Shown here: piece after piece, positions 6,920-38,186 of the stretch | Layout of the letters: each line of letters opens with the position of its first letter | Numbering within the stretch: position 1 is the stretch's first letter | Assembly (NCBI GenBank): GCA_038851755.1 | Contig: JAWCKR010000002.1 | Location: 1-64,000 of the forward strand | DNA: 64,000 nt | Direction: 5' to 3' | From: Candidatus Hadarchaeales archaeon | GTDB lineage: Archaea > Hadarchaeota > Hadarchaeia > Hadarchaeales > WYZ-LMO6 | The notes under the pieces: model-generated | Databases searched by the model: none | Told to the model about the DNA's origin: nothing | The model's input: only the letters and a program-made list of their open reading frames with translations | Made by a program: the position numbers and the translations under genes

Positions 6920-8385
6920 AAAAGTTCCACAAGAACCCACGGCGTGGGAGACGGGGGACCTTTATAGGAACAAGCCCACAAGATGGCCATCCGAGGCTTC
7001 AGATAACTCGACTTTTGATTTTACCACATTTTTCGCAGATGTACTTTTGTACGAATTTTCCTTTTCCAAGCCTGCTTGGTCCACCCACCTTTGTCCACCG
7101 GTGGATTCCCAATATGCACTTTAGAGTCCTTCTCGCTTTTCGTGGCACTTCCCTTTTGGGTTTGGAGTGAGGGGGTTCATCTCTCCCGGCAGGCTTCGAC
7201 CGTAGTTTCTCCAAGGCTCGCCAGTACCCGTTAGATTCTTCTTTCTTTTTACTTTGCAGGTAGTCGTAATACGGAGGGCAAGGGTGAGATTGCCCTTCTC
7301 TCCACTTTTCTCTTTCTAGCTTGCTCATAACGCCTGAGGAGTCAAAATCAGGAAGGTAGGGGGGCATAGGCTGAGCATGTTCCTCACAGAAACGTTTGTG
7401 GCAGTGGGGACACTCGACCTTTGCTGGTTTGTCGCATGAGTGGTAAGAGCATTCTCCCTCTCTAATCTTCCTTGGTTCAAGCCCTTTTGCCTTCCACATC
7501 CTCATAGGCAACTTGGCACACTCGTGCTTTTCAGGCAGCCGGTGCTCGGAGCAGTAGTACAAACCGCAGTAGTGGCAGTAGAAGGGCAGAACCTCTTCCC
7601 TGCCACAGTAGGCGCACTTATCCTTAGCCCCTGGTTCTATCCTCACCGTGCCTGTGAAATTGCTCCAAGCGAAGCTTTTCATGCTCAGGAAGGTTTGGAT
7701 TTTTTCATGCTCCACCCCGTGGTGAGGAGCCCACACATGCGCTACTTCGTGGCGGGCCACCTCTTCGATATCGTCTAGGTTGAGGGACATCAACCTTCCC
7801 TTCGAGATACAGATGATTCCTTCCTCTAGGTGTATATGGGCGATGTCGTCGCTGGAGGAGTTCGGGCATGGGGTTTCTGCAACTCTCACTATTAGTGGAG
7901 CAATCCCCATCATCTGGCAGTACCTCAGGACAGCGTTCGCGAGCGCGACCTTCTTTGCCTCGAAGAATGAATCATCCGTGCTCGAATTTTTGTTCATAAG
8001 CTCACGCTCTTGCTTCTTCTTTTCGCTCCTCGGGGGAGTCGCTCACTCCCACAATTTCAGGTTCCTTTTAATCTGGTTCTAATTTGATTTTTCATGTACT
8101 CATCTTGCGCGTGAGAGGTAAAGAGGATTATGTCGTACACACTATCTCAGAATATTTTGAATTTTTAAAGTTAGGGTTACTCTTGGAGGATGTGAAGTCC
8201 CTAAAGTGGATGGCATATTCAGGAAAAGAAACATGTTTTCGGGAATTTCCTAGTAATGCGCGTGTACTCTGACGACGCGAAGAGGCGAATGTTTTTTTTG
8301 CGGTCTAGGAAATCATTTTTGACTTTTTATTGATTGGTCAGAAGTCGAATCTTGTAATTTTCCTAGGTTCTCCCCCCTGGCGCCA
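6920..8385. mobile_element. Small low-GC island remnant at the tRNA-Asn 3' end
   Basis: Abrupt AT enrichment after the tRNA. The region ends with TCTCCCCCCTGGCGCCA (8369-8385), a degenerate copy of the tRNA 3' end TCTCCCCGGCGCCA, followed by a T-rich run. No integrase is present. Confidence 0.55.
6999..7997 (-). CDS. Hypothetical multi-domain protein: HExxH metallopeptidase-like domain, AN1-like zinc finger and further Cys/His fingers
   Basis: ARHEVAHVWAPHH; CAYC..PFYCHYCGLYYCSEHRLPEKHEC (AN1-like); CSYHSC..CPHCHKRFCEEH; C-terminal CILGIHRW..CEKCG. Confidence 0.75.
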   Translation of the reverse strand: MNKNSSTDDSFFEAKKVALANAVLRYCQMMGIAPLIVRVAETPCPNSSSDDIAHIHLEEGIICISKGRLMSLNLDDIEEVARHEVAHVWAPHHGVEHEKIQTFLSMKSFAWSNFTGTVRIEPGAKDKCAYCGREEVLPFYCHYCGLYYCSEHRLPEKHECAKLPMRMWKAKGLEPRKIREGECSYHSCDKPAKVECPHCHKRFCEEHAQPMPPYLPDFDSSGVMSKLEREKWREGQSHPCPPYYDYLQSKKKEESNGYWRALEKLRSKPAGRDEPPHSKPKREVPRKARRTLKCILGIHRWTKVGGPSRLGKGKFVQKYICEKCGKIKSRVI

Positions 8386-8417
8386 TCTCTTTTTATCTTT
8401 CTTCCCAGAGGGTTTTG

Positions 8418-9398
8418 ATGAGGGTTCTCCTCCTCAGGGAGAAAGAGATAGAAGAACTCCTCTCCATGCGCGAGACCATCGCCGCTGTGGAGGAGGCCTT
8501 CAGACAGAAGGGGGAGGGAAAAGTGCAGATGCCTCCCAAGTCCTACATCTTCTTCCCCAGATACGAAGGGGACTTCAGGGTGATGCCCGCCTACCTCGAA
8601 GCCGGGGAGGAGGCCGGGGTCAAGGTGGTAAACGTTCACCCGGAAAACCCCAAAAGGGGGCTGCCCTCGATAATGGCCACCATCCTGTTGCTCGATCCCT
8701 CCACGGGGGTACCGCTGGCCCTCATGGGCGGGACCTTGATCACCGCCCTCAGAACGGGTGCGGCGGGAGGGGTGGCGGCCAGGTATCTGGCCAGGAAGGA
8801 CAGCAAGGTGGTGGGCATGGTGGGGGCAGGGGTCCAGGCCAGGGCCCAGCTGAGGGCCCTGAGAGAGGTGTTGGAGGTGGAGAAAGTGAAGGTGGTATCC
8901 GCTCACCCATCGGAGATGAGGAAGTATGCGGAGGAGGTGAGAAAGGAGCACGGTATAGAGGTGGAGGAGGTGAAAGGGGTGGAGGAGGCGGTGAGGGGCA
9001 GTGACATCGTGGTGACCACCACCCCCTCCCGCGTTCCCCTGGTGAGGAGCGAGTGGGTATCGGAGGGGACCCACCTCAACGCCATAGGCGCCGACGCTCC
9101 GGGGAAGCAGGAGATGGAGCCGGAGCTCCTCAGGCGCGCCAAGGTGGTGGTGGATGATCTGGAGCAGGCCCTCCACTCGGGGGAGGTGAACGTTCCCTTC
9201 TCGAAGGGTCTCTTCAGGAGGGAGGACATATACGGGGAGCTCGGGGAGATCGTGGTCGGGAAGAAGCCGGGCCGCACCTCTCCCAGTGAGATCACCCTCT
9301 TCGACTCCACAGGTCTGGCCATCCAGGACATAACAGTGGCCTGGATGGTCTACCGGAAGGCCAGCAGGCTGGGGAAGGGCGAGGAGATAGAGCTCTAG
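8418..9398 (+). CDS. ala: Alanine dehydrogenase (ornithine cyclodeaminase/mu-crystallin family)
   Basis: QMPPKSY, GDFRVMPAY, GVKVVNVHPEN, LRTGAAG, GAGVQA, IGADAPGKQE, FDSTGLAIQD. Confidence 0.88.
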   Translation: MRVLLLREKEIEELLSMRETIAAVEEAFRQKGEGKVQMPPKSYIFFPRYEGDFRVMPAYLEAGEEAGVKVVNVHPENPKRGLPSIMATILLLDPSTGVPLALMGGTLITALRTGAAGGVAARYLARKDSKVVGMVGAGVQARAQLRALREVLEVEKVKVVSAHPSEMRKYAEEVRKEHGIEVEEVKGVEEAVRGSDIVVTTTPSRVPLVRSEWVSEGTHLNAIGADAPGKQEMEPELLRRAKVVVDDLEQALHSGEVNVPFSKGLFRREDIYGELGEIVVGKKPGRTSPSEITLFDSTGLAIQDITVAWMVYRKASRLGKGEEIEL

Positions 9399-9399
9399 C

Positions 9400-10392
9400 T
9401 CATCTCCTAAGACTGGTGTCCCTGGCCAGGATGGGAGAGATCTCCTTCTTGAGGGTCTCCAGGAAGGTGTCGAAGAGGTCCACGGGAACGGAGGCACCCG
9501 CGGCCCCCTCGTGCCCTCCACCGGACCCCCCTATTCTTTCCACTATGCCCCTCAGGAGCTCGTTGAGGTCGATCTTCACCCCGGCCTTCCTCCTGAGGCT
9601 CATGTCCACCTCCTTCTCACCCCTCCTGGTGGCCATACCTATGTCGGCACCAGTGACCCCGATGCAGTGGAAGGCGGCCTTGCTCAGGGAGCCCGAGGGG
9701 AGGTCGAGCACCATGGCCAGGTTTCCCTCCCTCACCACGTGCTTCTTCACGTACTCCCAGGTCTCCCACTCCCTCTTGGTGGCCTTGGTGGCCCTCTCCA
9801 GTATCTCAGGGATTTCCATGGGTGGCGTGTTCTTGGCCAGTAGCTCCACCACATCCCTCTTGTAATGATAGTCCCCCGGCACCTCCCCCAGCGCCTGGCT
9901 CAGGAGGCCGGCTTCCATGTAGATGGTGTGCCGGTTGTACTTGTTCAGGGTCTCCAGCACGAACTCGGTCTCCTCGCAGTAGTCCCCTATGGCGCCCCAG
10001 AGGGCCACCCGGTCCAGATAGGGGTCGAGGAAGGGCTGGAAGAGCCTGAAGGTGAGCTCTGAGGTGCTGGCCCCGATCTCGTGCACGAACTGGGTACAGG
10101 AGACGTCCTTCTTGAGGGTGCGGGGCGGGAGGGGGTGATGGTCGATGTAGAGGACTTCCCCCTTGGAGGAGAGTTCCCCCATCCGCTTGAAGATGGCATC
10201 CTTCTGGGTCTCGTTGATGGCGATGTCCAGGACGATGACGGTGCTCCCCTCCTCGGCCTCCTCCAGGTCCTTCAGGAGGGTCACGGGCCTCGTGAACCAG
10301 ACCTCCGCCTTGGGGAAGCGCGCCTTGGCAAGGGCGGCGGAGCAAACCCCGTCCGTGTCCCCGTGGGCCAGGATTTTGAAGTTCATCATCAT
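9400..10392 (-). CDS. DHH/DHHA1 phosphoesterase
   Basis: HGDTDG, LDIA, IDHH and C-terminal GGGHEGAAG. Confidence 0.88.
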   Translation of the reverse strand: MMMNFKILAHGDTDGVCSAALAKARFPKAEVWFTRPVTLLKDLEEAEEGSTVIVLDIAINETQKDAIFKRMGELSSKGEVLYIDHHPLPPRTLKKDVSCTQFVHEIGASTSELTFRLFQPFLDPYLDRVALWGAIGDYCEETEFVLETLNKYNRHTIYMEAGLLSQALGEVPGDYHYKRDVVELLAKNTPPMEIPEILERATKATKREWETWEYVKKHVVREGNLAMVLDLPSGSLSKAAFHCIGVTGADIGMATRRGEKEVDMSLRRKAGVKIDLNELLRGIVERIGGSGGGHEGAAGASVPVDLFDTFLETLKKEISPILARDTSLRR

Positions 10393-10568: not shown

Positions 10569-10606
10569 GCTCAGGACCCTTATAGGGGAGAGGGAGAGGT
10601 TTCTTG

Positions 10607-11842
10607 ATGCCGGACTGGGGGAGGGGGGTTTCCGCTGATCTGCATCTTCACTCCAAGTACTCGGGGGGGACCTCTTCCAGGATGGAGGTGGACACCATCT
10701 CCCAGCAGGCATCCCTGAAGGGCCTGGGCCTGGTGGGCACGGGTGACATCCTGCATCCAGGCTGGAGGAAAGAGGTCAGGGAGAGGCTGGAGGAGGTGGA
10801 GGAGGGAACGCTGGAGCATCCACGTTACCGCACGAGGTTCCTCCTCACCGGGGAGGTGGAGGACAGCAGGAGGGTCCACCACCTCCTCCTTTTTCCTTCC
10901 TTCTCCGCCGTGGAGGAAGTGGAGAGGCTCTTCTCCCGGAGGTCGGAGGACCTGGGGAGGGAGGGGAGGCCGCACGTGGACCTCTCCCCCCCTGAGGTGG
11001 CGGAGGCGGCCCTCTCCGCGGGATGCCTGGTGGGGCCCTCCCACGCCTTCACCCCCTGGACCAGCCTGTACAAGGAGTTCAACAGCCTGAGGGAATGCTA
11101 CGAAGACCAGGCGGACAAGATTTCCTTTCTGGAGCTGGGATTGAGCGCGGACACCTCCATGGCGGACCGCATCTCCGAACTGTCCGGCCTGACCTTCCTC
11201 TCCAACAGCGATTCCCACAGCCCCTGGCCGGAAAGACTGGGAAGGGAGTTCAACAGGTTCGGCATCCAGGAGCCCACCTTCGAGGAGGTGAGGAAGGCGG
11301 TGGAGAGGAGGGAGGGCAGGAAAGTGGTCCTCAACGTGGGCTTCGATCCCAGGCTGGGGAAGTACCACCGCACCGCCTGCTCCCGCTGCTTCAAGCAGTT
11401 CGAGCTGGAGAAGGCCAGAGAGCTTGGATGGAAATGCGACGAGTGCGGTGGATGGGTGAAGAAGGGGGTCTGGGACAGGGTGAACGAGCTGGCCGATCTG
11501 CCCGAGCCTTCCTCCCCTCCCCATCGCCCCCCCTACCTCCGCGTGGCGCCCCTGGCCGAAATCCTGGCCCTGGGCTGGGGGACTGAGGTCCGTGATCCCA
11601 GGGTGAGGGAGACCTGGAGGAAGCTGGTGGAGAGGTTCGGGTCGGAGATAGAGGTGCTGGTGGACGCTCCGCCCGAGGAGATGGAGAAGGTGGTGGAGAA
11701 GAGGGTCTCGGACCTGATCATGGCCTTCCGGAGGCAGGAGCTGAGGGTCTTCCCGGGGGGTGGAGGCAGGTACGGCAGGCTGGAGCTGCCTCCCCACCTC
11801 TCCAGACGGGTGGGGCAGCGCACCCTGGGGGATTTCACCTGA
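10607..11842 (+). CDS. Endonuclease Q family (PHP domain plus Zn finger; TIGR00375-like)
   Basis: DLHLHSKYS, GTGD, HAFTPW, ELGLSAD, SNSDSHS, GKYHRTACSRC, GGGGRYG. Confidence 0.85.
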   Translation: MPDWGRGVSADLHLHSKYSGGTSSRMEVDTISQQASLKGLGLVGTGDILHPGWRKEVRERLEEVEEGTLEHPRYRTRFLLTGEVEDSRRVHHLLLFPSFSAVEEVERLFSRRSEDLGREGRPHVDLSPPEVAEAALSAGCLVGPSHAFTPWTSLYKEFNSLRECYEDQADKISFLELGLSADTSMADRISELSGLTFLSNSDSHSPWPERLGREFNRFGIQEPTFEEVRKAVERREGRKVVLNVGFDPRLGKYHRTACSRCFKQFELEKARELGWKCDECGGWVKKGVWDRVNELADLPEPSSPPHRPPYLRVAPLAEILALGWGTEVRDPRVRETWRKLVERFGSEIEVLVDAPPEEMEKVVEKRVSDLIMAFRRQELRVFPGGGGRYGRLELPPHLSRRVGQRTLGDFT

Positions 11843-15962: not shown

Positions 15963-17300
15963 TCACAGGGTGGGGAGCAGGTTCTGAAGTTCCCAATCCG
16001 TTACCTGTGAGCGGTAGGACTCCCACTCCTGGGTCTTGATGTACAGGAAGTGTTCGAAGAGGTGGTCCCCTATCGCCTCCCTCACGAGCTTGCTCCTTTC
16101 CATGTGCTCCAGGGCCTCTCCGAGGTTGGAGGGGAGGGGTTCTATCTGAAGCTCCCTCTTCTCCTCCGGGGTCATCCTGAAGATGTTCCTCTCCACGGGC
16201 TCGGGGGGATAGATCTTCTCCTCTATCCCCTTCAGCCCGGCGGCCAGCATCACGGAGAACTGGAGGTAGGGGTTGCCGGCAGGGTCCGGGCTCCTGAGCT
16301 CTATCCTGGTCCTCAGCTCCCTCCCGGAGGGGACCCTTATGTATGCACTCCTGTTCCTGTTGGCCCAGGAGATGTACACGGGTGCCTCGTACCCGGGCAC
16401 CAGCCTCTTGTAGGAGTTGACCGAGGAGGCGAGGATGGCGCACATCTCCCTGGCGTACTTCAGCAGCCCACCTATGAAGCACAGGGCGAGTTCGCTGAGC
16501 TGGTATTTGCCCTTGGGGTCGTAGAAGAAGTTCTTGGTGCCGTCAGGGCTCATCAGGGACATGTGGGTGTGCATGCCCGATCCGTTGACTCCGTAGATGG
16601 GTTTGGGCATGAAGGAGGCGAAGAGCCCGTGCCTGTGGGCTATGAGCTTGGTGGTGTACTTCATCATCATCACCCTGTCGGCGGAGGTGAGGGCATCGGC
16701 GTACCTCAGGTCGATCTCGTGTTGGCCAGGCGACACCTCGTGGTGGGAGGCCTCCACCTCGAACCCCATCTCGCTCAGGTGCATCACGATCTCCTTCCTT
16801 ATCTCGTCCCCCCTGTCTCTCATCAAATCGAAGTACCCCCCCAGGTCGGAGGGCTGGGTAGTGGGTCTTCCGCGCTCGTCCACCTGGAGGAGGAAGAACT
16901 CGTACTCCGGAGCCGTGTTGAACACGTATCCTTCCTTTCTGGCCCTTTCGGAGAGCCTCTGCAGGGCGTACCTAGGATCCCCCTCGAACCTGTTGTTCTT
17001 GTGGTCGTAAACGTCGCAGACCATGCAGGCGGTCTTGAGGTTTCCGTTGGTCCAGGGAAGGATGGTGAAGGTCTTGGGGTCAGGCATCAGGCGCATGTCT
17101 GATTCCTCCACGGTGGCGTAGCCCAGCACGGAGGATCCATCGAAGAAGACCCCTTCGGAGAGCGCCCTCTCCAGCCGCTCCACAGGCAGGGTGATGTTTT
17201 TTACCGTCCCCAGGATGTCCATGAACTGCATCTGGATGAACTTTACCCCGGCGTTCTGGGCCTTCTCCACCACTTCCTTCCTTTCCCTCACCGGCATCAC
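15963..17300 (-). CDS. glnA: Glutamine synthetase type I
   Basis: FDGSSV, HHEVSPGQHEI, FMPKP, NGSGMHTH, NSYKRLVPGYEAP, NRSAYIRVP, RIELRSPD. Confidence 0.97.
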   Translation of the reverse strand: MMPVRERKEVVEKAQNAGVKFIQMQFMDILGTVKNITLPVERLERALSEGVFFDGSSVLGYATVEESDMRLMPDPKTFTILPWTNGNLKTACMVCDVYDHKNNRFEGDPRYALQRLSERARKEGYVFNTAPEYEFFLLQVDERGRPTTQPSDLGGYFDLMRDRGDEIRKEIVMHLSEMGFEVEASHHEVSPGQHEIDLRYADALTSADRVMMMKYTTKLIAHRHGLFASFMPKPIYGVNGSGMHTHMSLMSPDGTKNFFYDPKGKYQLSELALCFIGGLLKYAREMCAILASSVNSYKRLVPGYEAPVYISWANRNRSAYIRVPSGRELRTRIELRSPDPAGNPYLQFSVMLAAGLKGIEEKIYPPEPVERNIFRMTPEEKRELQIEPLPSNLGEALEHMERSKLVREAIGDHLFEHFLYIKTQEWESYRSQVTDWELQNLLPTL

Positions 17301-17397
17301 CCTTCTTGGAGGAGGGGCTTATTTAGCTTATTTAACCCCGGGAGCTCCACGGTGTAGTTCTATAAATCGGTATCGAGCGGAAAAGAAAAGGGTAATC

Positions 17398-18321
17398 ATG
17401 AGGAGGTATCTGCTCCTGGTCTTGCTCTTGGTCCTGCCCCTTTTCTGGAGCCTGGGGAGTCCGGTGGCTGGGGAAGAAGCGCCGGCGAAGGTGAAGGTGG
17501 GTGTGTGGATAAACTCTATCGAGAAGGTGGATGTACCCTCCCAGACCTTTACCGTCGACTTCTACGTGTGGTTCAAGTACGGGGGGGAGAAGCCGGACAT
17601 TGAGTTCATGAAGGGAACTCCCACCACCATGACTCTCATCCAGCAGGAGGAGAGAGGAGGGGAGAACTACCTGGAGTACAGGGTCAAGGGTGTTTACGTG
17701 AGCTCCCTGAACTTCAGAAACTTTCCCTTCGACGAGCATCTCCTCACGGTGGAACTCGAGGACAAGCATCGTGGAGTCTCCAAGCTGGTTTTTGAACCGG
17801 ACGAGGAGGAAAGCGGTCTGGATCCCAATCTCACGGTTCCTGGGTGGGAGGTGAAGGACTTCAGGCTCTACGTCGACCAGCACGTTTATCCCGACGAGAA
17901 CTATTCCAAGTTCATCTTCGGGGTGACGGTGTATCGTTCAAAGACCTCAGCTTTCTTCAAGTACTTCTTCCCCATCCTCATCATCACCCTCATCTCCCTC
18001 CTAACATTTTCCATCTCGGTCAAGAATTTTGGACAGAGGGTGGGGATCTGCGTCACCACCCTCATGTCTGCGGTGGCCTACCACCTGGCGGCCCTGAGCG
18101 GCCTTCCCTCCCTTGGATACCTCACCCTCTTCGACAGGATTATGCTGGTTGTCTACACCCTCTTCCTCTACAACCTCGTGGTTTCGGTTCAGGCGATGAG
18201 GCTGGTGGAGGCGGGGAGGGTGAAGGAGGCGGAGGGCTTCGAGACCAGGATGCAGAATCTCCTGCCTTTCCTGGCTTTGGGGCTCTTCCTGGTTTACGTA
18301 CTGGTTCTCGGTCTGCTGTGA
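17398..18321 (+). CDS. Prokaryotic pentameric ligand-gated ion channel (Pro-loop/Cys-loop superfamily)
   Basis: Signal peptide; beta-strands VKVGVWINSIEKVD..TFTVDFYVW; loop A PDIEFM; Pro-loop NFPFDEH; four TM helices with M1 Pro (FFPIL) and M2-M3 loop LPSLGYLTLFD. Confidence 0.85.
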   Translation: MRRYLLLVLLLVLPLFWSLGSPVAGEEAPAKVKVGVWINSIEKVDVPSQTFTVDFYVWFKYGGEKPDIEFMKGTPTTMTLIQQEERGGENYLEYRVKGVYVSSLNFRNFPFDEHLLTVELEDKHRGVSKLVFEPDEEESGLDPNLTVPGWEVKDFRLYVDQHVYPDENYSKFIFGVTVYRSKTSAFFKYFFPILIITLISLLTFSISVKNFGQRVGICVTTLMSAVAYHLAALSGLPSLGYLTLFDRIMLVVYTLFLYNLVVSVQAMRLVEAGRVKEAEGFETRMQNLLPFLALGLFLVYVLVLGLL

Positions 18322-20161: not shown

Positions 20162-20228
20162 GCAGACTTCTTTCACCCTATAGGGTAAAAAACCGAAGGA
20201 AAAAAAGAAAAAATCTCGGAAAAAGCCT

Positions 20229-20525
20229 TCAGCTCTTTCCGAGAACTATTTCGATGGTAGATACATTGATTTTTTCGCCGCCTTCTGTCTGGAGTTCTTC
20301 CGTGCCGATGGTTATGTTTTTGGGGACCAGTCCCTGTATGAAACGGTTCCTGAGGATTTCCGCCACATCCACGGCCCTGCTTATCGCCTTTCCCCTGGCT
20401 TTGAGTACCACTTCGTTGCCCCCTTGGTTGAACTGCGTGATGGCTGCCAGCACGTAGTTCATCACGGGTTTGGTCCCCACGAACACGGCGTTATCAGCGG
20501 CGCTTTTCTTTGGGTTTTCTGCCAT
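20229..20525 (-). CDS. albA: Chromatin protein Alba
   Basis: [36 protein letters not shown]. Confidence 0.97.
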
Positions 20526-20564
20526 ATCATGCCTCCTGTTTTTTTAGATGGTCCTTTCCCCCCG

Positions 20565-20972
20565 TTAAATACTTTTCCCCTCCCTTCTCAGGGCTAGGAG
20601 CATCCTCCTCTGCAGGTTCTCCTGCACTTCTTGTGCAGTCTTCTTTCCCTTTCGCATGTCTAGGTAATCCGCCAGGTCTTCCAGCACCAGTTGCGCGATT
20701 TCCTCCTCCAGCAGCCCTAGGTAGAGGGCCAGTTCCAGCGTATAGAAAGCCCGCATCAGGCTTTCCTTCCCTCTCTTCCACCTTTTCCAGACCCCCGATC
20801 TCCCCATTCCCATTTTTTTGGCTATTCCCTCGAAGCTTCGAGCCCTTTCTGAGTAGTACAGGAGGAGAATTTGAAGGGTTTTTTCGTCAAATAAGGATTT
20901 TTTTAGGAGTATTTTTGCTAGGGGACTGTTTTTTACTTCTTTTATTCCGTAATCGCTTTTTTTCTTGGTCAT
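20565..20972 (-). CDS. Hypothetical helix-turn-helix protein
   Basis: SFEGIAKKMGMGRSGVWKRW HTH-like segment; AT-rich 5' half; directly upstream of alba. Confidence 0.65.
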   Translation of the reverse strand: MTKKKSDYGIKEVKNSPLAKILLKKSLFDEKTLQILLLYYSERARSFEGIAKKMGMGRSGVWKRWKRGKESLMRAFYTLELALYLGLLEEEIAQLVLEDLADYLDMRKGKKTAQEVQENLQRRMLLALRREGKSI

Positions 20973-21133
20973 TTTCCCCCTGAAAAAGATTCTTCCTTCC
21001 ACCTAATAATGTTTCCATTATGAGGAAACAAGCGCGCGTGAGGGAAAGAAGGATGGAGCTTTGGATGCGTACTGGGTGCCCTCTTTCCCCCGCAGATTCT
21101 TGCCCCAAGGGGATCCGGGCAAAGCTTTTTAAT

Positions 21134-21255
21134 GTAGGCCACAAGCCTACTCTTGTAGGAAAAAAGCCTACGCAGTAGGACGGGGGCCTACATGGCGTGG
21201 GAAAAAAGCCTACGAGGTGTAGGCTTTCGTCCCTCGGCGTAGGCCGGAGGCCATC
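21134..21255. repeat. Array of six 17-bp palindromic sites GTAGG-N7-CCTAC with 20-22-bp period
   Basis: Starts at 21134, 21155, 21175 (perfect), 21197 (GTGGG..CCTAC), 21219 (GTAGG..CCCTC) and 21239 (GTAGG..CCATC). The array lies between a TATA-like TTTTTAAT (21126-21133) and the GTG start at 21258. Confidence 0.9.
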
Positions 21256-21257
21256 AC

Positions 21258-21827
21258 GTGAAAATCGCCGGGTTCTTCCCCTCCGAGATGCGGGTGGAGA
21301 TGGTGCGGGAAATGGTGGAGAAGATGGGGATTCGCCCGGTTTCCAATTCTATAGGTGTGAACTCCAAGACCGTCTACAAGTACAAGCTAGGGGAGGCAGT
21401 CCCCAGAGATGAAACTCTTGTCAGGCTCCTCGAGGTTTTGAGAGAGAGGGACCCGGGCACTTTCTGGATGTACGTGGAGAAACTCCAGAAGGGGTTCGAA
21501 GAGGCTCTTTCTTCCTTGAGGGGTGGAGAAGAACCCAGAGCCCCTCAGGGAGAGACCCCACCCCCCCTCCTGGAGGAAGGTGCGGAGATTTCCAGGTTCG
21601 AGGTCTACGAGAGGCTGGGGATAGAGAACCCGTCCGAGCGTGTGAGGCTGGCCAGGATTCTCTCCTTCTTGGCCACATGTAACGAATTCAGGGAGGAGGA
21701 GCTGGAAGAGAGGGTGATGCTCCCTGCGGAGGAAGTGGAGGACTACCTCAAGAAGCTGGCGCAGCACGGAATTTTGGAGAGGGCTAAAAGCGGGATTTAT
21801 CGGGTGAAGATCAAATGCAGACTGTGA
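21258..21827 (+). CDS. Two-domain DNA-binding protein (N-terminal Xre-like HTH, C-terminal winged helix)
   Basis: IRPVSNSIGVNSKTVYKYKLGEAVPRDE; Pro-rich linker; EELEERVMLPAEEVEDYLKKLAQHGILERAKSGIYRV. Confidence 0.75.
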   Translation: MKIAGFFPSEMRVEMVREMVEKMGIRPVSNSIGVNSKTVYKYKLGEAVPRDETLVRLLEVLRERDPGTFWMYVEKLQKGFEEALSSLRGGEEPRAPQGETPPPLLEEGAEISRFEVYERLGIENPSERVRLARILSFLATCNEFREEELEERVMLPAEEVEDYLKKLAQHGILERAKSGIYRVKIKCRL

Positions 21828-22789
21828 GGGAAGAGCAGGCTGAGCTGAGAGGCTTCGGAATGGACTCCTTCGAGCGCAAGAAAGCCTCCTTCTTCAGGAG
21901 GTGGGGCTGGAGGTTTCTCCCGTTTGCACAGACGGACCCCCTCCCCCATCCCAAGCTCATGGTGCCGCACCAGAAGGAGGAAGTGGTGAAGCTGGTGGAC
22001 CTCATAAGGGAAGGAGACCTCGTGACTTTCGTGGTCTCAGATCTGGGGATGGGAAAAACCACTCTCTGCAAATACCTGTCGGAGGTTCTTCCCCTTCAGG
22101 ACCCACAGCTTCTAACGGTTTTCGTCCCGGCTCAGTCCGTTCAAACCCCGGAGCAGATGCTGCGCATCCTCCTGAACAGGCTGGAGATAGAGGCGGGAGG
22201 CGACCTCACCGAGGAGTTCGAGAAGTTCTACCGGTGGCATCAGGCCTATCCCGAATCCAAGTTGGTCGTTTTCGTGGACGAGTTCCCGGAGCTGGATGTG
22301 AAGGTGGCGGAGATGATAAGGGCGTTGGCAGACCTGAAGAACATCACTTGGGTTTTGAACGGGAGGAAGGACCAGATTCTGGACTATCTGCAGGAGCACG
22401 TGCCATCTCTCCTCAGCAGGAAGAGGTACATGATGGAGATGAAACCTCTTTCCCTGGAGGAGGTGCGCGAACTGCTCCTCCTCCGCATGGCTTGGGCGAG
22501 GGGGGAAGTCAACCCGAGGGGCGACTCCCTCCTTCCCTTCACCCCTTCCAGTCTCAGGAGGATCCACAGGCTTTCCGGGGGAATCCCCCGCGAGGTTCTC
22601 AAGCTGGCGAGCGATGCGGTTTACTCGGCCATAGAGAAAAACGCCACCAGGATTCAGGCTTCTCTCGTGGGGGAGAGGAAGAAAAGGAGTCCTAGGAAGA
22701 AAGCGAAGCGTAAGCCCAGGCCGAGGCGCAGGCGCGTCAGGAAGAGGAGGAAGAAGGCCAAGAGAAGGTTCAGCTTTTTTGGGAGGTAG
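21815..22789 (+). CDS. ExeA/AAA_22-like AAA+ ATPase with a very basic C-terminal tail
   Basis: Walker A SDLGMGKTT, Walker B VVFVDE, lid IHRLSGGIPREV; tail RKKRSPRKKAKRKPRPRRRRVRKRRKKAKRRFSFFGR. Confidence 0.85.
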   Translation: MQTVREEQAELRGFGMDSFERKKASFFRRWGWRFLPFAQTDPLPHPKLMVPHQKEEVVKLVDLIREGDLVTFVVSDLGMGKTTLCKYLSEVLPLQDPQLLTVFVPAQSVQTPEQMLRILLNRLEIEAGGDLTEEFEKFYRWHQAYPESKLVVFVDEFPELDVKVAEMIRALADLKNITWVLNGRKDQILDYLQEHVPSLLSRKRYMMEMKPLSLEEVRELLLLRMAWARGEVNPRGDSLLPFTPSSLRRIHRLSGGIPREVLKLASDAVYSAIEKNATRIQASLVGERKKRSPRKKAKRKPRPRRRRVRKRRKKAKRRFSFFGR

Positions 22790-22819
22790 CTATAAACCCA
22801 CTCCTTTCCTTCTCTTCTG

Positions 22820-23503
22820 ATGGTGCCCAAATTCGACTTTCACGTTCACACGGTTTACTCCGATGGTTCCACGCCCCTCGAGCTGGTTCTGGAGGAGGCC
22901 CAGAGCAGGGGACTGGAAGCGGTTGCCGTGACCGACCACGGTCCTGGCTTAAGCGTGGGGGCTGAGGCTCCGAAGTTTTTGCGGCTCTCCGAGGAGGTGC
23001 GGAAGATGCGGGAGGAGAATGGCTTCAAGATCCTTGCCGGTGTGGAAAGCAACATAACCCCCGTGGGGGCTCTGGATTTGGGTAAAGAAGTGCTGGTGAA
23101 GCTGGACCTGGTAACGGCCGGAGTGCATTACCTGGACTCCAAGGACTGCAAGGCTCAGGCCGGAGAATATCTCAGGGCGGTGAGGAGAGCCCTCTGTTCC
23201 CGCTCCTTTAAGGTTCTGGTGCATCCCCTTTACTACAACAAGTCCCTCCTTCCCTGGATTCCGCGGGAGGAGATGGAGGAGTTCGTGGAAGAGCTGGCGG
23301 AAGCGGGAGTGGCAGTGGAACTCAACTCCAAGTACCGAGCTCCGGATAAGGAATTTCTCCAAGAGTGCCTCAGGAGGGGGGTGAAGTTGAGCATAGGGAC
23401 AGACGCTCACCATGCAAAGGAGATAGGAATGGTGGACTGGCAGCTTTCCCTGCTGAGGCGTCTGGGGGCGAGAAGGGAGGATTTGATCTTGGACTCCCTC
23501 TGA
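22820..23503 (+). CDS. PHP-domain phosphoesterase
   Basis: DFHVHTVYSDG, VTDH, GVESN, ELNSKY, GTDAH. Confidence 0.9.
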   Translation: MVPKFDFHVHTVYSDGSTPLELVLEEAQSRGLEAVAVTDHGPGLSVGAEAPKFLRLSEEVRKMREENGFKILAGVESNITPVGALDLGKEVLVKLDLVTAGVHYLDSKDCKAQAGEYLRAVRRALCSRSFKVLVHPLYYNKSLLPWIPREEMEEFVEELAEAGVAVELNSKYRAPDKEFLQECLRRGVKLSIGTDAHHAKEIGMVDWQLSLLRRLGARREDLILDSL

Positions 23504-34975: not shown

Positions 34976-35662
34976 ATGCCCTCGGAGCAAGAGCTGCTTC
35001 AGGAAATAGAGCGCAGGGCTATAGACAACAAGGAAAACGCTCTCCAGGTTCGTGCCGGGAAACTTTCCGGCGATACCGTGATCTACATCGCCTTCTCCCC
35101 CTACCTCCCCTGCCTCATAAGAACGGGCGCCGCAGAGGCCAGAACCCTCTTTGGGATGAAGGCCGAGATGGCGTGCCATGTTTTGAACGAAGCCAACGAG
35201 ATTATTTTCTCGTACCTGATAAGGTTCGATGAGGGGTATGTCACTGATTATCAGAGGTTGGATCTCAACCTCACCCATCCCACCACCGGTACTCCACTGC
35301 GCGACGCCATCAAGGGGAAGAGTGTTTACTGGAAGAACCCCACCGGACCGGCCTTCGCGGGGGAAATAGTGGACTCTATCCGGAAGGACAAAAGTTATAA
35401 ACTGTTTAGCGGAGTAGGCTACCTGAAGGACTTCGAGGAGGGTATGGCCATACCGGATGAAAACCTGGACGCGAAGTGCACCCTGAACTACGATCTTTTG
35501 GAGATAAGGAAGAGAGCGGCCATCCATCCCATGCCTGCCACCATGAGGGGCTTTCTCCTGATGGGGAGAGCAGACTTCACCGATTGGCTGAAGGAGATCC
35601 TGGGAGGAGAGGATCTTCTCCCGGTGGTCCACACCGTGAGGGAGAGGTTGGGGAGGAGATAG
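34976..35662 (+). CDS. Hypothetical protein (228 aa)
   Basis: ATG after a TTTATAAA box; typical composition; first gene of the FAD oxidoreductase/CoA-transferase run; no motif recognised. Confidence 0.75.
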   Translation: MPSEQELLQEIERRAIDNKENALQVRAGKLSGDTVIYIAFSPYLPCLIRTGAAEARTLFGMKAEMACHVLNEANEIIFSYLIRFDEGYVTDYQRLDLNLTHPTTGTPLRDAIKGKSVYWKNPTGPAFAGEIVDSIRKDKSYKLFSGVGYLKDFEEGMAIPDENLDAKCTLNYDLLEIRKRAAIHPMPATMRGFLLMGRADFTDWLKEILGGEDLLPVVHTVRERLGRR

Positions 35663-35663
35663 C

Positions 35664-37139
35664 ATGGAAGCCGAAGTTCAAAAGGACAGGATTCTGGGGC
35701 TCCTGCAAGACATCGTGGGACCGGAGCACGCCTCTGCGGACCCTGCCCTGCTCATCCCCTACTCCAGAGACCAGCACTGGCCCATAGCAGGCACTCACAT
35801 GCCCGACTACGTGGTCAGGCCCAAGACGGTGGAAGAGGTCCAAAAGATCCTGAGGGTGGCCAACAGGTACAGGATTCCCGTCATACCGGTCAGCAGTAAC
35901 ACCAACATCAGGGGGCTCACCATCCCCCACCATGGTGGAATAATAATGGACCTGAAGAGGATGGACCACCTCGAGATAGATGTGAAGAACAGGGCGGCCG
36001 TGATAGGTCCTGGCATCAGCTGCGCCAAGCTGGCGGACGAGGCTGAGAAGTACGGGCTCAGGCCCATCATCCCCGGTGCGCCCTCCACGGTTAACATGCT
36101 CTCCAATTGCCTCCTGAGAGGAGTTTCCAACATAGGCCCCAGATACGGTCACACCGGTGATCAGGTCCTGGGTATGGAGGTGGTCCTGCCCACGGGAGAG
36201 ATCCTGTACACCGGAGCGGCAGCCTTCCCCAATGTGGGACCTTACTTCAGGTACTTCGGTCCCGACTGGGCCGGTCTCTTCCAGGGTCAACCGGGGATTA
36301 TGGGAGTGGTGACCAAGATGGCGGTCAGGCTCTATCCCCTGCCCGAGCGCCAGGAGATGTTCATGTGCGGTTTCAACCAGAGGGAAGGCGAATCGGAGGA
36401 GGGCCCCCTGCGCAGGGCCATGGCCTTCATGCACGACCTCATGCTCCACGATCCACCCGTCATAACGTTCGGGGTGATTCTCCACTGGGTGGCGGCCGCC
36501 ATCACCATGGTGGAGAAGAGGGAGGACATAGACTCCTTCAAGGGGACCCTGGGAGACTGGGTGGTGCTGGGTTCCATCGAGGGCTCCAAGGACTTCGTGA
36601 AGTACGGCAGGTCGGTGGTGGAGAAGGAGATCAAGAAGCACTGGGACAACATAGACGAGGGGAGGGAAGTGGTGCTCATGTCGAAGATGCTCAAGGATGA
36701 GCTGAAGGCGGCGCGCAGGATCTTCAGGTGGTTCAGGCTCGGGAACTACTACGCCCTGGCCTGGTGGGGACCGCTGGACAGGTTCGACCAGTACTACTTC
36801 GAGGCGCTGAAGATCTGGAGGGAACTCGGGATCACGGAGGAGCTCTCCATCGTGGGTATTCCAGCCTACCCCTACGTGGGGCAGCTGACCTACTACGAGT
36901 TCGACAGCTTCTGGGACTCCACAGACGAGAGGAACACCGAGAAGATCAAGAAGTTCACGGAGCTCATGTACCAGAAGATGATCGACCTGGGGATCTACTG
37001 CTGGTTCAGACCCTATCCGGGGGTGTACGAGAGCACCATCCCCAGGCTGAAGGGATGCATGGGAGAGCTCTGGTACAAGGTCAAGAAGCTCCTGGACCCC
37101 AACAACATCATGAACCCTGGCAAGGTGTTCCCAGAGTAG
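35664..37139 (+). CDS. FAD-binding oxidoreductase (VAO/PCMH family)
   Basis: PDYVVRPKTVEEVQKIL, GGIIMDLKRM, GMEVVLPTGEILYTG, GIMGVVTK, KKLLDPNNIMNPGK. Confidence 0.9.
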   Translation: MEAEVQKDRILGLLQDIVGPEHASADPALLIPYSRDQHWPIAGTHMPDYVVRPKTVEEVQKILRVANRYRIPVIPVSSNTNIRGLTIPHHGGIIMDLKRMDHLEIDVKNRAAVIGPGISCAKLADEAEKYGLRPIIPGAPSTVNMLSNCLLRGVSNIGPRYGHTGDQVLGMEVVLPTGEILYTGAAAFPNVGPYFRYFGPDWAGLFQGQPGIMGVVTKMAVRLYPLPERQEMFMCGFNQREGESEEGPLRRAMAFMHDLMLHDPPVITFGVILHWVAAAITMVEKREDIDSFKGTLGDWVVLGSIEGSKDFVKYGRSVVEKEIKKHWDNIDEGREVVLMSKMLKDELKAARRIFRWFRLGNYYALAWWGPLDRFDQYYFEALKIWRELGITEELSIVGIPAYPYVGQLTYYEFDSFWDSTDERNTEKIKKFTELMYQKMIDLGIYCWFRPYPGVYESTIPRLKGCMGELWYKVKKLLDPNNIMNPGKVFPE

Positions 37140-37151
37140 GTCGGTGTTAGG

Positions 37152-38186
37152 GTGGCGGAGCCCGACAAACTGATGACGGCCAAAGAGGCCGTTAAAAAGT
37201 TTGTGAGGGACGGTTGCAGCATCACGCTGGCCAACTTCGCCACTTCCGAACCCTTCGCCCTTGTTCACGAGGTGATAAGGCAGGGGAAGAAGGACCTCTA
37301 TCTCATCAAGTCCTCTGGCTTCATGGCCTCGGATCAGCTCCTCGCCGCCGGGTGCCTGAAGAGGATTTTGACCTCCTGGCACCTTCGCATGTCCCCCACC
37401 TCCTACTACTCCCCCATCGACAAGTTGCTGAAGGAGAAGAAGGTGGAAATAGAGGACTACAGCAACTGGACGGTGGCCGCCAGGCTCCTGGCGGGGGCCT
37501 GGGGCCTTCCCTTCTTCCCCGTGAAGGGGAACTCCCTCCTCTGCAGCGACATCTCGAGGATCAGGAGCTTCGAGGGGGAGAACAAGATGAAGGTGGTGGA
37601 GAACCCCTTCAACCCGAAGGAGAAGGTGGTCCTGGTTCCCGCCATCAACCCGGACGTGGCCCTCATCCATGCCCAGCGCGCCGACAAGAACGGCAACGTG
37701 CAGCTCTGGGGACCCCTGGGGGACACGGTGTATGCCGCCCTGGCGAGCAAGGTGATCATCGCCAGCGTGGAGGAAATCGTGGAGGAGGAAAACATAAGGA
37801 GGTCCCCCTTCCTCACCATTATCCCGGAGTTCAGGGTCAACGCGCTGGTGCACGAGGAGTGGGGGGCACATCCCATGGAGTGCCTTGGATACTACGACAT
37901 GGATGAACCCTTCCTGCTCATCTGGTACGCCCTGCTCACCAGGAAGATGATGGAGAGCTTCATGGATGAGTGGATTTTCGGGGTGGAGAATCGCACCGAG
38001 TACATAGAGCACTACGTGGAGAGGTTCGGGATTGAGAAGCTCAACAGCCTGAGGGCCAAGAAGTACCTTTCCGACACCGTGAACCTCGGGTCCACCTTTG
38101 AGGGAGACATGAAGAGGTGGGGGATAGACTGGGACCTCTTCGAGCAGCCCATCTCGGAGATGGTGGAGTGGGAGGTGGAGGAGTGA
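37152..38186 (+). CDS. CoA-transferase subunit A (glutaconate CoA-transferase-like)
   Basis: KLMTAKEAVKKFVRDG, ALVHEVIRQG, PDVALIHAQRADKNGN, WGAHP..GYYD. Confidence 0.88.
   Translation: MAEPDKLMTAKEAVKKFVRDGCSITLANFATSEPFALVHEVIRQGKKDLYLIKSSGFMASDQLLAAGCLKRILTSWHLRMSPTSYYSPIDKLLKEKKVEIEDYSNWTVAARLLAGAWGLPFFPVKGNSLLCSDISRIRSFEGENKMKVVENPFNPKEKVVLVPAINPDVALIHAQRADKNGNVQLWGPLGDTVYAALASKVIIASVEEIVEEENIRRSPFLTIIPEFRVNALVHEEWGAHPMECLGYYDMDEPFLLIWYALLTRKMMESFMDEWIFGVENRTEYIEHYVERFGIEKLNSLRAKKYLSDTVNLGSTFEGDMKRWGIDWDLFEQPISEMVEWEVEE

Follow-up and report, generated by a model that had tools for sequence, protein, structure and literature searches.

We describe a gene module at positions 20229-22789 of a 64,000-nucleotide stretch of DNA from Candidatus Hadarchaeales archaeon (NCBI GenBank assembly GCA_038851755.1, contig JAWCKR010000002.1, positions 1 to 64,000 of the forward strand; hereafter the window). 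A helically phased repeat array lies at the promoter of an operon encoding a two-domain DNA-binding protein (hthB) and an AAA+ ATPase, and a second helix-turn-helix (HTH) gene (hthA) and the chromatin gene alba are read in the opposite direction. On the genomes compared, the module is vertically inherited, single-copy and nearly universal in Hadarchaeales, and, judged by its motifs, the ATPase is a truncated AAA+ of the ExeA/GspA clade without transmembrane or periplasmic part. The HTH type of hthB and the motif of the array swap together between lineages. Our data suggest, at a probability that we put a little short of even, that the module builds a site-specific nucleoprotein complex in which hthB would occupy the array and be coupled to a membrane-associated AAA+ ATPase. 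The elements of the module and its downstream neighbor are as follows.

20229-20525, minus strand: alba, chromatin protein Alba (Pfam Alba, 78.8 bits; TIGR00285, 135 bits)
20565-21002, minus strand: hthA, small HTH protein; an open reading frame (ORF) of 145 amino acids with no Pfam family at cut-off
21011-21029: palindrome GTTTCC-N7-GGAAAC, putative hthA operator; unique in the genome, at the hthA promoter
21120-21133, plus strand: AAGCTTTTTAAT, putative B recognition element (BRE)/TATA box of the hthB-ATPase operon; conserved in four of five aligned relatives
21134-21255: phased array of 17-bp GTAGG-N7-CCTAC units, from a repeat finder plus a sixth, degenerate unit
21258-21827, plus strand: hthB, putative adaptor of HTH and winged helix, 189 amino acids (HTH_3 weak; DnaD_N, 28.1 bits)
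21815-22789, plus strand: AAA+ ATPase, 324 amino acids (AAA_22, 41.4 bits)
22670-22786, plus strand: disordered tail of the ATPase, residues 286-324, in the AlphaFold2 (AF2) model
22763-22786, plus strand: terminal motif RRFSFFGR of the ATPase, read from the sequence
22820-23503, plus strand: PHP-domain phosphoesterase (Pfam PHP, 55.7 bits)

A sequence-only reading of the window had proposed the order alba, HTH gene, array, HTH-winged-helix gene and ATPase gene, and all five elements were recovered at the positions listed. The hthA-hthB intergenic region measures 255 bp, and the hthB and ATPase genes overlap by 13 nt. The source assembly is 93% complete, with its 1.25 Mb spread over 26 contigs. 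For comparison, 32 loci were read, 12 from the survey of the order's genomes and 20 fetched separately (labels: G, genomes of the order or phylum; L, loci of relatives; P, metagenomic protein representatives); hthB is complete in 31 of them, and L005, which a contig end truncates, was not aligned. The ATPase and hthB alignments therefore held 31 sequences each, and the hthA alignment held 30 homologues.

The ATPase was present in 38 of 41 sampled genomes of the order, including 23 of the 25 high-quality ones; a profile search added one further genome and the single phylum genome outside the order, and did not find the gene in G012 (92% complete) or G007 (75% complete). hthA occurred in 61 of 66 genomes of the phylum (25/26 high-quality) and was not found in the phylum genome outside the order. 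In all 32 loci, a same-strand hthB-type ORF ending in a winged helix abutted the ATPase start, so that the pairing of the two genes put forward by the sequence-only reading held throughout, with overlaps of 4 or 13 nt at 24 of 31 junctions (4 nt in 20, 13 nt in 4); four others had a 2-4-nt gap, and in the remaining three the longest-ORF call overlapped further. hthA adjoined the module in 30 of the 32 loci, the exceptions being a contig end and a 5.6-kb separation. Two arrangements were observed: hthA-alba divergent from hthB-ATPase in the window's family and a sister family, and hthB-ATPase-hthA-alba-aspS on one strand elsewhere. The hthB-ATPase pair is thus inverted relative to hthA-alba in two families, with adjacency kept. 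The trees of the ATPase and hthA had their main clades in common, and their patristic distances correlated (r = 0.75, 435 pairs, the kin among them not being independent), which fits vertical co-inheritance.

The repeat finder returned five 17-nt units, GTAGG-N7-CCTAC, starting at 21134, 21155, 21175, 21197 and 21239, with start-to-start spacings of 21, 20, 22 and 42; a degenerate sixth unit at 21219 lies inside the 42-nt gap. Because this unit closes the gap, half-sites recur every ~10-11 bp, about once per helical turn, in alternating orientation, giving a total of about 11 half-sites. Seven of the 31 GTAGGC hexamers of the window fall within 111 bp, and a 125-bp interval at the array contained nine GTAGG/CCTAC pentamers, against four in the best interval elsewhere in the 1.25-Mb assembly, in which the array is single-copy. 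The array starts directly after the conserved AAGCTTTTTAAT element, a BRE/TATA-like box that we take to be a promoter on the archaeal consensus, and stops 2 nt ahead of the hthB start codon. Among five relatives from the window's family, the half-sites were conserved and the spacers were free to vary. Together, these features suggest that hthB binds the array cooperatively. A crude tally against control windows, which took the best hexamer per 130 nt and allowed one mismatch at most, gave 11-12 sites in all four genomes of the window's genus compared with a control maximum of 8-10, 12 sites in L033 compared with 8 in controls, and nine sites in L010 and L012 compared with a control maximum of 7.

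The N-terminus of hthB in the window resembles a weak XRE-type HTH (HTH_3, E 0.016), and its C-terminus is a winged helix (DnaD_N, 28.1 bits against a cut-off of 27; TrmB, MCM_C and IclR below threshold); a low-complexity linker joins the two. The C-terminal winged helix of ~85 residues was kept in 31 of 31 aligned sequences. Both the window's family and its sister family have an XRE-like N-terminal domain, whereas that of other families is of the HTH_17/MerR type (42-49 bits), and the sites changed with the domain. XRE-type hthB pairs with palindromes, GTAGGC/GCCTAC in the window's genus and GTAGTC...GACAAC-type in the sister family, whereas MerR-type hthB pairs with direct repeats at 9-10-nt spacing (such as TTGTTA, GTTAGA or AGATAA), with 12 copies of TTGTTA in L033 and eight of AGATAA in L038. 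About 10 of the 31 hthB sequences carry an N-terminal insert, eight of which keep a CxxC...CxxC pattern; the only insert-bearing sequence scanned, that of L032, matched Pfam HNH above cut-off (24.0 bits). The hthB start call was supported by a strain variant in metagenome contigs, in which the GTG start codon is replaced by ATG. The full hthB architecture was found only in records labelled Hadarchaeota.

The ATPase matched AAA_22 (PF13401) at 41.4 bits (E 2.2e-10, residues 66-185; gathering cut-off 27 bits). Walker A (GMGKT) occupies residues 78-82, Walker B D155-E156, and sensor-2 P258-R259; P36, F37, P51, G78, G80, K81, T82, D155, R202, P258 and R259 were invariant in the 31 homologues, and N182 was nearly so. 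R202 is a candidate arginine finger. Position 156 is Glu in 11 of 31 sequences and Asp in 20 of 31, all Asp forms belonging to the co-directional arrangement, which hints at slow or regulated hydrolysis in those homologues. The N-terminal W-G-x(3)-P-F...P...Q and G-x-PR motifs are common to bacterial ExeA/GspA (nine ExeA sequences compared), the closest relatives outside the phylum at 25-31% identity.

ExeA/GspA is the AAA+ protein that serves type II secretion and MSHA-pilus assembly at the bacterial inner membrane, and the likeness of the module ATPase to it is extensive: both have the N-terminal [FW]G-x(3)-PF...P motif, Walker A GxGKT, an arginine finger and a sensor-2 G-x-PR, with an ATPase domain of the same length and a basic-aromatic segment following the lid at the point where ExeA enters the membrane. 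In seven of nine bacterial ExeA proteins, this segment (e.g., RPWYRRLGWG) is followed by a transmembrane helix and then by a long extension at the C-terminus, and the ExeA-type matches from a word-based search carry PG_binding_1 or SPOR. The archaeal ATPase instead terminates at the basic-aromatic segment, 39 residues past the lid, and neither PG_binding_1 nor SPOR was matched in Pfam; unlike ExeA/GspA, the module ATPases have no transmembrane helix, except in one homologue, and no peptidoglycan-binding or SPOR domain. No GspB-like partner accompanies them, their partners being two DNA-binding proteins and a DNA array, and there is no type II secretion or pilus context, the host archaeon having no secretins. 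Across all 32 archaeal loci the neighbors were hthB, hthA, alba, PHP and aspS. The view of the sequence-only reading that this ATPase stands apart from secretion operons therefore holds within Hadarchaeales, where the partners are DNA-binding proteins, but not for its nearest outside relatives, which are ExeA/GspA themselves.

The AF2 model of the ATPase (mean predicted local distance difference test [pLDDT], 83.6) was matched in Foldseek by Orc1/Cdc6 (1w5t, E 1.5e-10; 2qby; 1fnn), MuB (8xvc), TnsC (7m99) and 7plh, with TM-scores of 0.5-0.68, and RuvB was also among the structural matches. The proposed kinship to DNA-filament ATPases was thus confirmed at the level of fold. The model has two helices between beta-2 and beta-3, which we take to be a trait of initiator-type AAA+ proteins. 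Like these best structural matches (Orc1/Cdc6, MuB and TnsC/TniB), which work with a site-specific DNA-binding partner or domain, the module ATPase is encoded beside a putative adaptor. In contrast to Orc1/Cdc6 and TnsC/TniB, its sequence scores lie far below cut-offs, no transposase is present, and the locus is not at an origin: the ATPase scored 15.2 bits against a cut-off of 181.3 for TIGR02928 (Orc1/Cdc6), with no winged helix in the chain, and 37.8 bits against 324.5 for TIGR03015 (PEP-CTERM-associated ATPase). TniB, CbiA and AAA_31 gave no Pfam match for the window's ATPase, and a sequence search of solved structures returned only ClpB fragments (E >= 0.09). The ATPase also differs from ParA, SegA and MinD in having an AAA+ fold rather than the deviant Walker A fold; a non-ParA system is not compelled by any lack of ParA-type proteins, as 12-15 ParA/MinD-family matches occur elsewhere in the genome.

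A profile search with the ATPase among 1.84 billion representatives gave 24,468 matches at E <= 0.001, of which 38 reached 1e-30. The top ~15 were the Hadarchaeal family, including forms with an N-terminal zinc ribbon and a form fused to a winged helix; the next group combined TPR repeats, a zinc ribbon and AAA_22, at least one member (P0206) having an N-terminal hydrophobic, transmembrane-like segment, and ordinary ExeA followed. P0193, P0194 and P0201 carry one or two N-terminal CxxC...CxxC zinc ribbons ahead of the conserved PF motif. The fused form (AAA_22 plus a C-terminal HTH_24 winged helix) occurs in G041, a sister lineage of the phylum without hthA (L120:1399-2574, 391 amino acids), and in the metagenomic P0211 (367 amino acids). 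This sister lineage resembles Orc1 in fusing a winged helix at the ATPase C-terminus, in contrast to the module, in which the winged helix lies on a separate protein encoded upstream. Past the winged helix, both fused ATPases have W/F-x-RR-L-like residues at their ends, reminiscent of the tail motif described below, and the fused-form cluster carries the label 'Methanobacteriota archaeon'.

The 39 residues after V285 carry a net charge of +24 and end in RRFSFFGR; the sequence-only reading had described an Arg/Lys tract of ~30 residues with this cap. The tails of the 31 aligned homologues differed by family.

Window's family: 30-42 residues after the lid, net charge +13 to +24, ending in RRFSFFGR, RRFGFFGR, RRFFWR or RFLRFFGRK
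Sister family: 22-59 residues after the lid, net charge -19 to +2, ending in SFWSFLPFVED or similar
Other families: 14-20 residues after the lid, net charge +4 to +8, ending in, e.g., KRSFLKRIFSFLI or KVSFWRRLFG

An aromatic/hydrophobic terminal motif (typically KRSFLKRIFSFL, SFWRRLFG, SFWSFLPFVED or RRFSFFGR) was present in nearly all of the 31 homologues; the tail is no read-through artefact, and the Arg/Lys tract was confined to the window's family. Judged by this alignment, the conserved element of the tail is the terminal aromatic/hydrophobic peptide and not the Arg/Lys tract. Compared by eye, the motif resembles the juxtamembrane RPWYRRLGWG of ExeA and occupies the corresponding position beyond the lid. 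The helical hydrophobic moment, taken over the best 11 residues of each tail, ranged from 0.33 to 0.80 across the 31 tails, and one homologue (L025) has a hydrophobic 20-residue stretch inserted in its tail. Given the position at which ExeA enters the membrane, the amphipathic character of the peptide and the membrane anchors of related groups, our best guess is that the tail has a membrane-interface role; it may alternatively be a protein-docking peptide. MinD has a membrane-targeting C-terminus, and the tail is like the targeting sequences of MinD and FtsA in that a flexible linker leads to a short peptide, basic and aromatic/hydrophobic, at the very C-terminus, with a moment of up to 0.8.

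Comparison with relatives points to the ATG at 20972 as the probable conserved start of hthA, giving 135 amino acids. In the AF2 model of hthA (pLDDT 84), residues 25-87 form a four-helix HTH that precedes a helical hairpin, and the recognition helix has an invariant W62-K63...G68 in the 30 homologues. The structural matches of the HTH were LuxR/GerE and sigma-70 region 4 domains and an archaeal transcription factor. VIA-align gave a Z of 7.8, a middling value, to the EsrB DNA-binding domain and the archaeal factor 8hno (root mean square deviation, 0.9-1.6 over 52-61 residues); Foldseek returned nothing at E <= 0.001 (best E 0.055), and Sigma70_r4 scored 17.2 bits, below its cut-off of 24.1. 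An atlas search gave its own Hadarchaeota cluster together with leads below 0.9 (Nitrososphaerota hypotheticals, Tfx and GerE), and hthA was found only in records labelled Hadarchaeota. The palindrome GTTTCC-N7-GGAAAC, which the sequence-only reading does not mention, has one copy in the 1.25-Mb genome; of 30 loci from across the order, 22 have it at the 5' end of hthA, in both gene arrangements. A TATA-like box occurs just upstream of it in most loci of the co-directional type and several of the sister family, and just downstream of it in the window's genus. This placement beside TATA-like boxes and the hthA start corresponds to the position of a promoter operator. Based on the model and this position, hthA is most simply read as a dimeric autoregulator of the LuxR/sigma-70-region-4 type that would bind the palindrome in its own promoter.

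Two neighbors accompany the module. alba is co-directional with and directly after hthA in 13 of 20 fetched loci and in the window; it is a conserved neighbor by gene order and may have a functional tie to the module. The PHP gene, which begins 30 nt past the ATPase in the window, was present in 18 of 32 loci in both arrangements, lying downstream of the ATPase gene in some and divergent from hthB in others; its best NCBIfam match, PRK08392, was below cut-off. From its recurrence, the phosphoesterase is a possible accessory of the module.

The overall layout recalls partition cassettes. As in ParMRC, TubZRC and SegAB, a phased repeat array at the module's own promoter precedes genes for a putative site-specific adaptor and for an NTPase, and, as in partition cassettes, adaptor and site co-vary between lineages; parC and tubC are likewise phased promoter arrays. 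According to passages of one report, SegB binds a centromeric site next to segAB (PMC12139799). Unlike in ParMRC, TubZRC and SegAB, the NTPase is an AAA+ rather than an actin-, tubulin- or ParA-type protein, the putative adaptor consists of an HTH and a winged helix, and a third, separately regulated HTH protein belongs to the module. A full-text literature search, judged at the level of abstracts, found no description of the module. AAA_22 membership and a partition-like layout are known; for the combination of array, adaptor and ExeA-clade AAA+, no match was found among described systems.

The binding steps, membrane association, oligomerisation and cellular role that we infer for the module can be put as follows. 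hthB dimers would coat the helically phased array through their lineage-specific N-terminal HTH and, as the array spans or abuts the hthB promoter, would also autoregulate the hthB-ATPase operon. The C-terminal winged helix of hthB would engage the translationally coupled ExeA-clade ATPase, which could oligomerise with ATP, as Orc1/Cdc6, MuB and TnsC do on DNA, and its C-terminal aromatic/amphipathic motif would hold it at the cytoplasmic membrane. hthA would act as a separate LuxR/sigma-4-type regulator binding GTTTCC-N7-GGAAAC at its own promoter. The net effect would most likely be ATP-controlled membrane attachment of a loosely origin-proximal locus, for chromosome organisation or segregation. 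A segregation or tethering output takes roughly half of the probability that we give to the nucleoprotein complex as such, and partition and condensation are likewise putative functions of the module. The stronger claim of a new chromosome-anchoring or segregation machine, in which an adaptor-coated, centromere-like array would work with a membrane-bound ExeA-clade AAA+, we regard as doubtful.

Several observations weigh against the membrane-attached complex. An array overlapping a promoter is equally predicted by simple autorepression, and the crude repeat count was at or below that of control windows in most of the remaining 29 loci tested, many of which are AT-rich and belong to other families; we therefore do not claim an array in every lineage and consider it firm for the window's genus and, beyond that, only for some lineages. 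AF2 gave the tail no structure or helix (pLDDT <50), and the sister-family motif has a proline and acidic ends, features that differ from MinD and FtsA and fit a protein-docking peptide equally well. The basic tract, being limited to one family, cannot serve as a conserved DNA-binding element, and because 20 of 31 homologues carry Asp at the position of the Walker-B Glu, fast ATP turnover may not be general. The fused winged helix is not detectably that of hthB (hhalign probability 2%), so that a Rosetta-stone argument was rejected and the fusion shows only that the ATPase clade pairs with winged-helix domains. The ParA/MinD-family proteins of the genome could serve segregation. Finally, the loosely origin-proximal position of the module is weak evidence: the module lies 28 kb from the main orc1/cdc6 gene in G013 and 51 kb from it in G002, which belongs to the window's genus, and in two related genomes such proximity counts for little because synteny is inherited.

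A purely transcriptional circuit would account for the same genes without chromosome mechanics, and we hold it to be fairly unlikely. In such a circuit, hthA and hthB would be autorepressors and the AAA+ an ATP-dependent modulator, that is, a co-repressor or anti-repressor and possibly a membrane or energy sensor, which would tune the operon and perhaps hthA-alba. The palindrome beside TATA-like boxes and the hthA start, the array right after a TATA-like box, the uniqueness of each site in the genome, as autoregulation predicts, and the probable LuxR/sigma-4-type regulator fold of hthA all agree with it, and passages of PMC9738581 place on record non-initiator Orc1 paralogues that act as regulators, a precedent for this circuit. 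However, eleven phased half-sites far exceed what autorepression needs, the membrane-type tail, near-universal single copy and DNA-filament-class AAA+ suggest a structural output, and no target beyond the module itself was seen in the genome. A domesticated mobile-element, addiction or defence module, built from an excisionase/IS607-like HTH (with HNH in some lineages) and an AAA+, is improbable. The nearest outside relatives of the HTH_17/MerR-type hthB N-termini are indeed the N-termini of IS607 transposases (E about 1e-17), some hthB proteins carry an insert there, which matched HNH in the one scanned, and domain swapping and fast-evolving sites recall conflict systems. PADLOC gave matches at the level of domains only (the N-terminal HTH of RmrA; mad1 and ZorE, on HNH; the ATPase at E 0.002-0.008), with nothing for hthA and no system model for the ATPase. 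Moreover, the module keeps a fixed chromosomal place beside alba and aspS across the order, is single-copy and co-diverges with hthA, the window's own hthB has no HNH insert, and no recombinase, transposase or other defence gene was detected by Pfam among 27 nearby ORFs.

The sequence-only reading had also allowed for replication initiation at this locus. In an origin of this kind, the array would supply iterons, hthB would be a winged-helix initiator resembling Rep or WhiP, and the AAA+ would be a loader resembling Cdc6. The fold of the ATPase is closest to Orc1/Cdc6, the hthB winged helix passes the DnaD_N cut-off by a small margin, and 17-bp units at ~21-bp spacing resemble plasmid iterons. 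This idea is nevertheless disfavoured, and we consider it highly improbable: the genome has two bona fide Orc1/Cdc6 genes, scoring 449 and 263 bits, on contigs other than that of the module, and the cumulative GC-skew minima lie away from the module, at ~785-790 kb in G013 (module at ~832 kb, ~40 kb away) and at ~345-365 kb in G002 (module at 266 kb, ~80-95 kb away). No skew switch was seen at the module in G013, in G002 or at 21 kb of the window, which indicates that the module is not an origin, and no AT-rich unwinding element adjoins the array. Least probable of all, to the point of being barely credible, is that the array acts as RNA, as a structured 5' leader of the hthB-ATPase mRNA. The RNA of 21128-21262 folds at -69.3 kcal/mol (z = -7.6 against shuffles), and use of the TATA-like box at 21126 would place the array in the transcript; a strong fold is, however, a trivial consequence of palindromic units. 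Among the five relatives, the covariation term was unfavourable (+2.17), with double changes in 3 of 40 pairs, the consensus structure differed from the single-sequence fold, the direct repeats of other families cannot pair, and Rfam gave no match (best E 0.64). Conserved half-sites, variable spacers and the lack of covariation together favour protein on DNA, the mode of action proposed for the hthB-array complex, over a structured leader.

The genes flanking the module are housekeeping genes (Nudix, AspRS, AMMECR1, Mut7-C, TFB, TiaS, ArgRS and topoisomerase VI A), with glutamine synthetase recognised by eye from its translation. The sequence-only statement that secretion, transposase and integrase genes are missing nearby was upheld by Pfam for 27 ORFs located from 5.6 to 38 kb of the window, a negative that concerns Pfam-recognisable families only, since 8 of 20 ORFs in the wider scan had no match at E<=1e-5. 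Among the ORFs without such a match, that at 17191-18321 (plus strand, 376 amino acids) combines a signal-like N-terminus with a large soluble domain and with hydrophobic helices at the C-terminus, and is by eye reminiscent of a pentameric ligand-gated channel; other large ones lie at 35577-38009 (minus strand, 810 amino acids), 8313-9518 (minus strand, 401 amino acids) and 10604-11839 (plus strand, 412 amino acids). Positions 20200-23500 were fully covered by contigs of two libraries that are labelled metatranscriptomic and were flagged as probably DNA, and a small-share RNA run covered only alba. In runs X4/X6, the alba contigs (20200-20550) had 3-40x the word depth of the hthA, hthB and ATPase contigs, depths that cannot rank genes.

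The chromosome organisation and segregation of most archaea are still largely unknown. The passages of the literature that we drew on present SegAB, which is ParA-based and has been studied in Sulfolobales, as the only characterised archaeal segregation machinery. The Hadarchaeal module provides a concrete and experimentally simple candidate for a segregation solution other than SegAB, and a DNA-linked, more tractable relative for the enigmatic cytoplasmic ATPase domain of bacterial ExeA/GspA. If the chromosome-anchoring machine is real, the cytoplasmic engine of bacterial ExeA/GspA would have been re-used in archaea to act on DNA; even if the module is only autoregulatory, it would define two families of archaeal DNA-binding proteins, both new, and the operators that belong to them.

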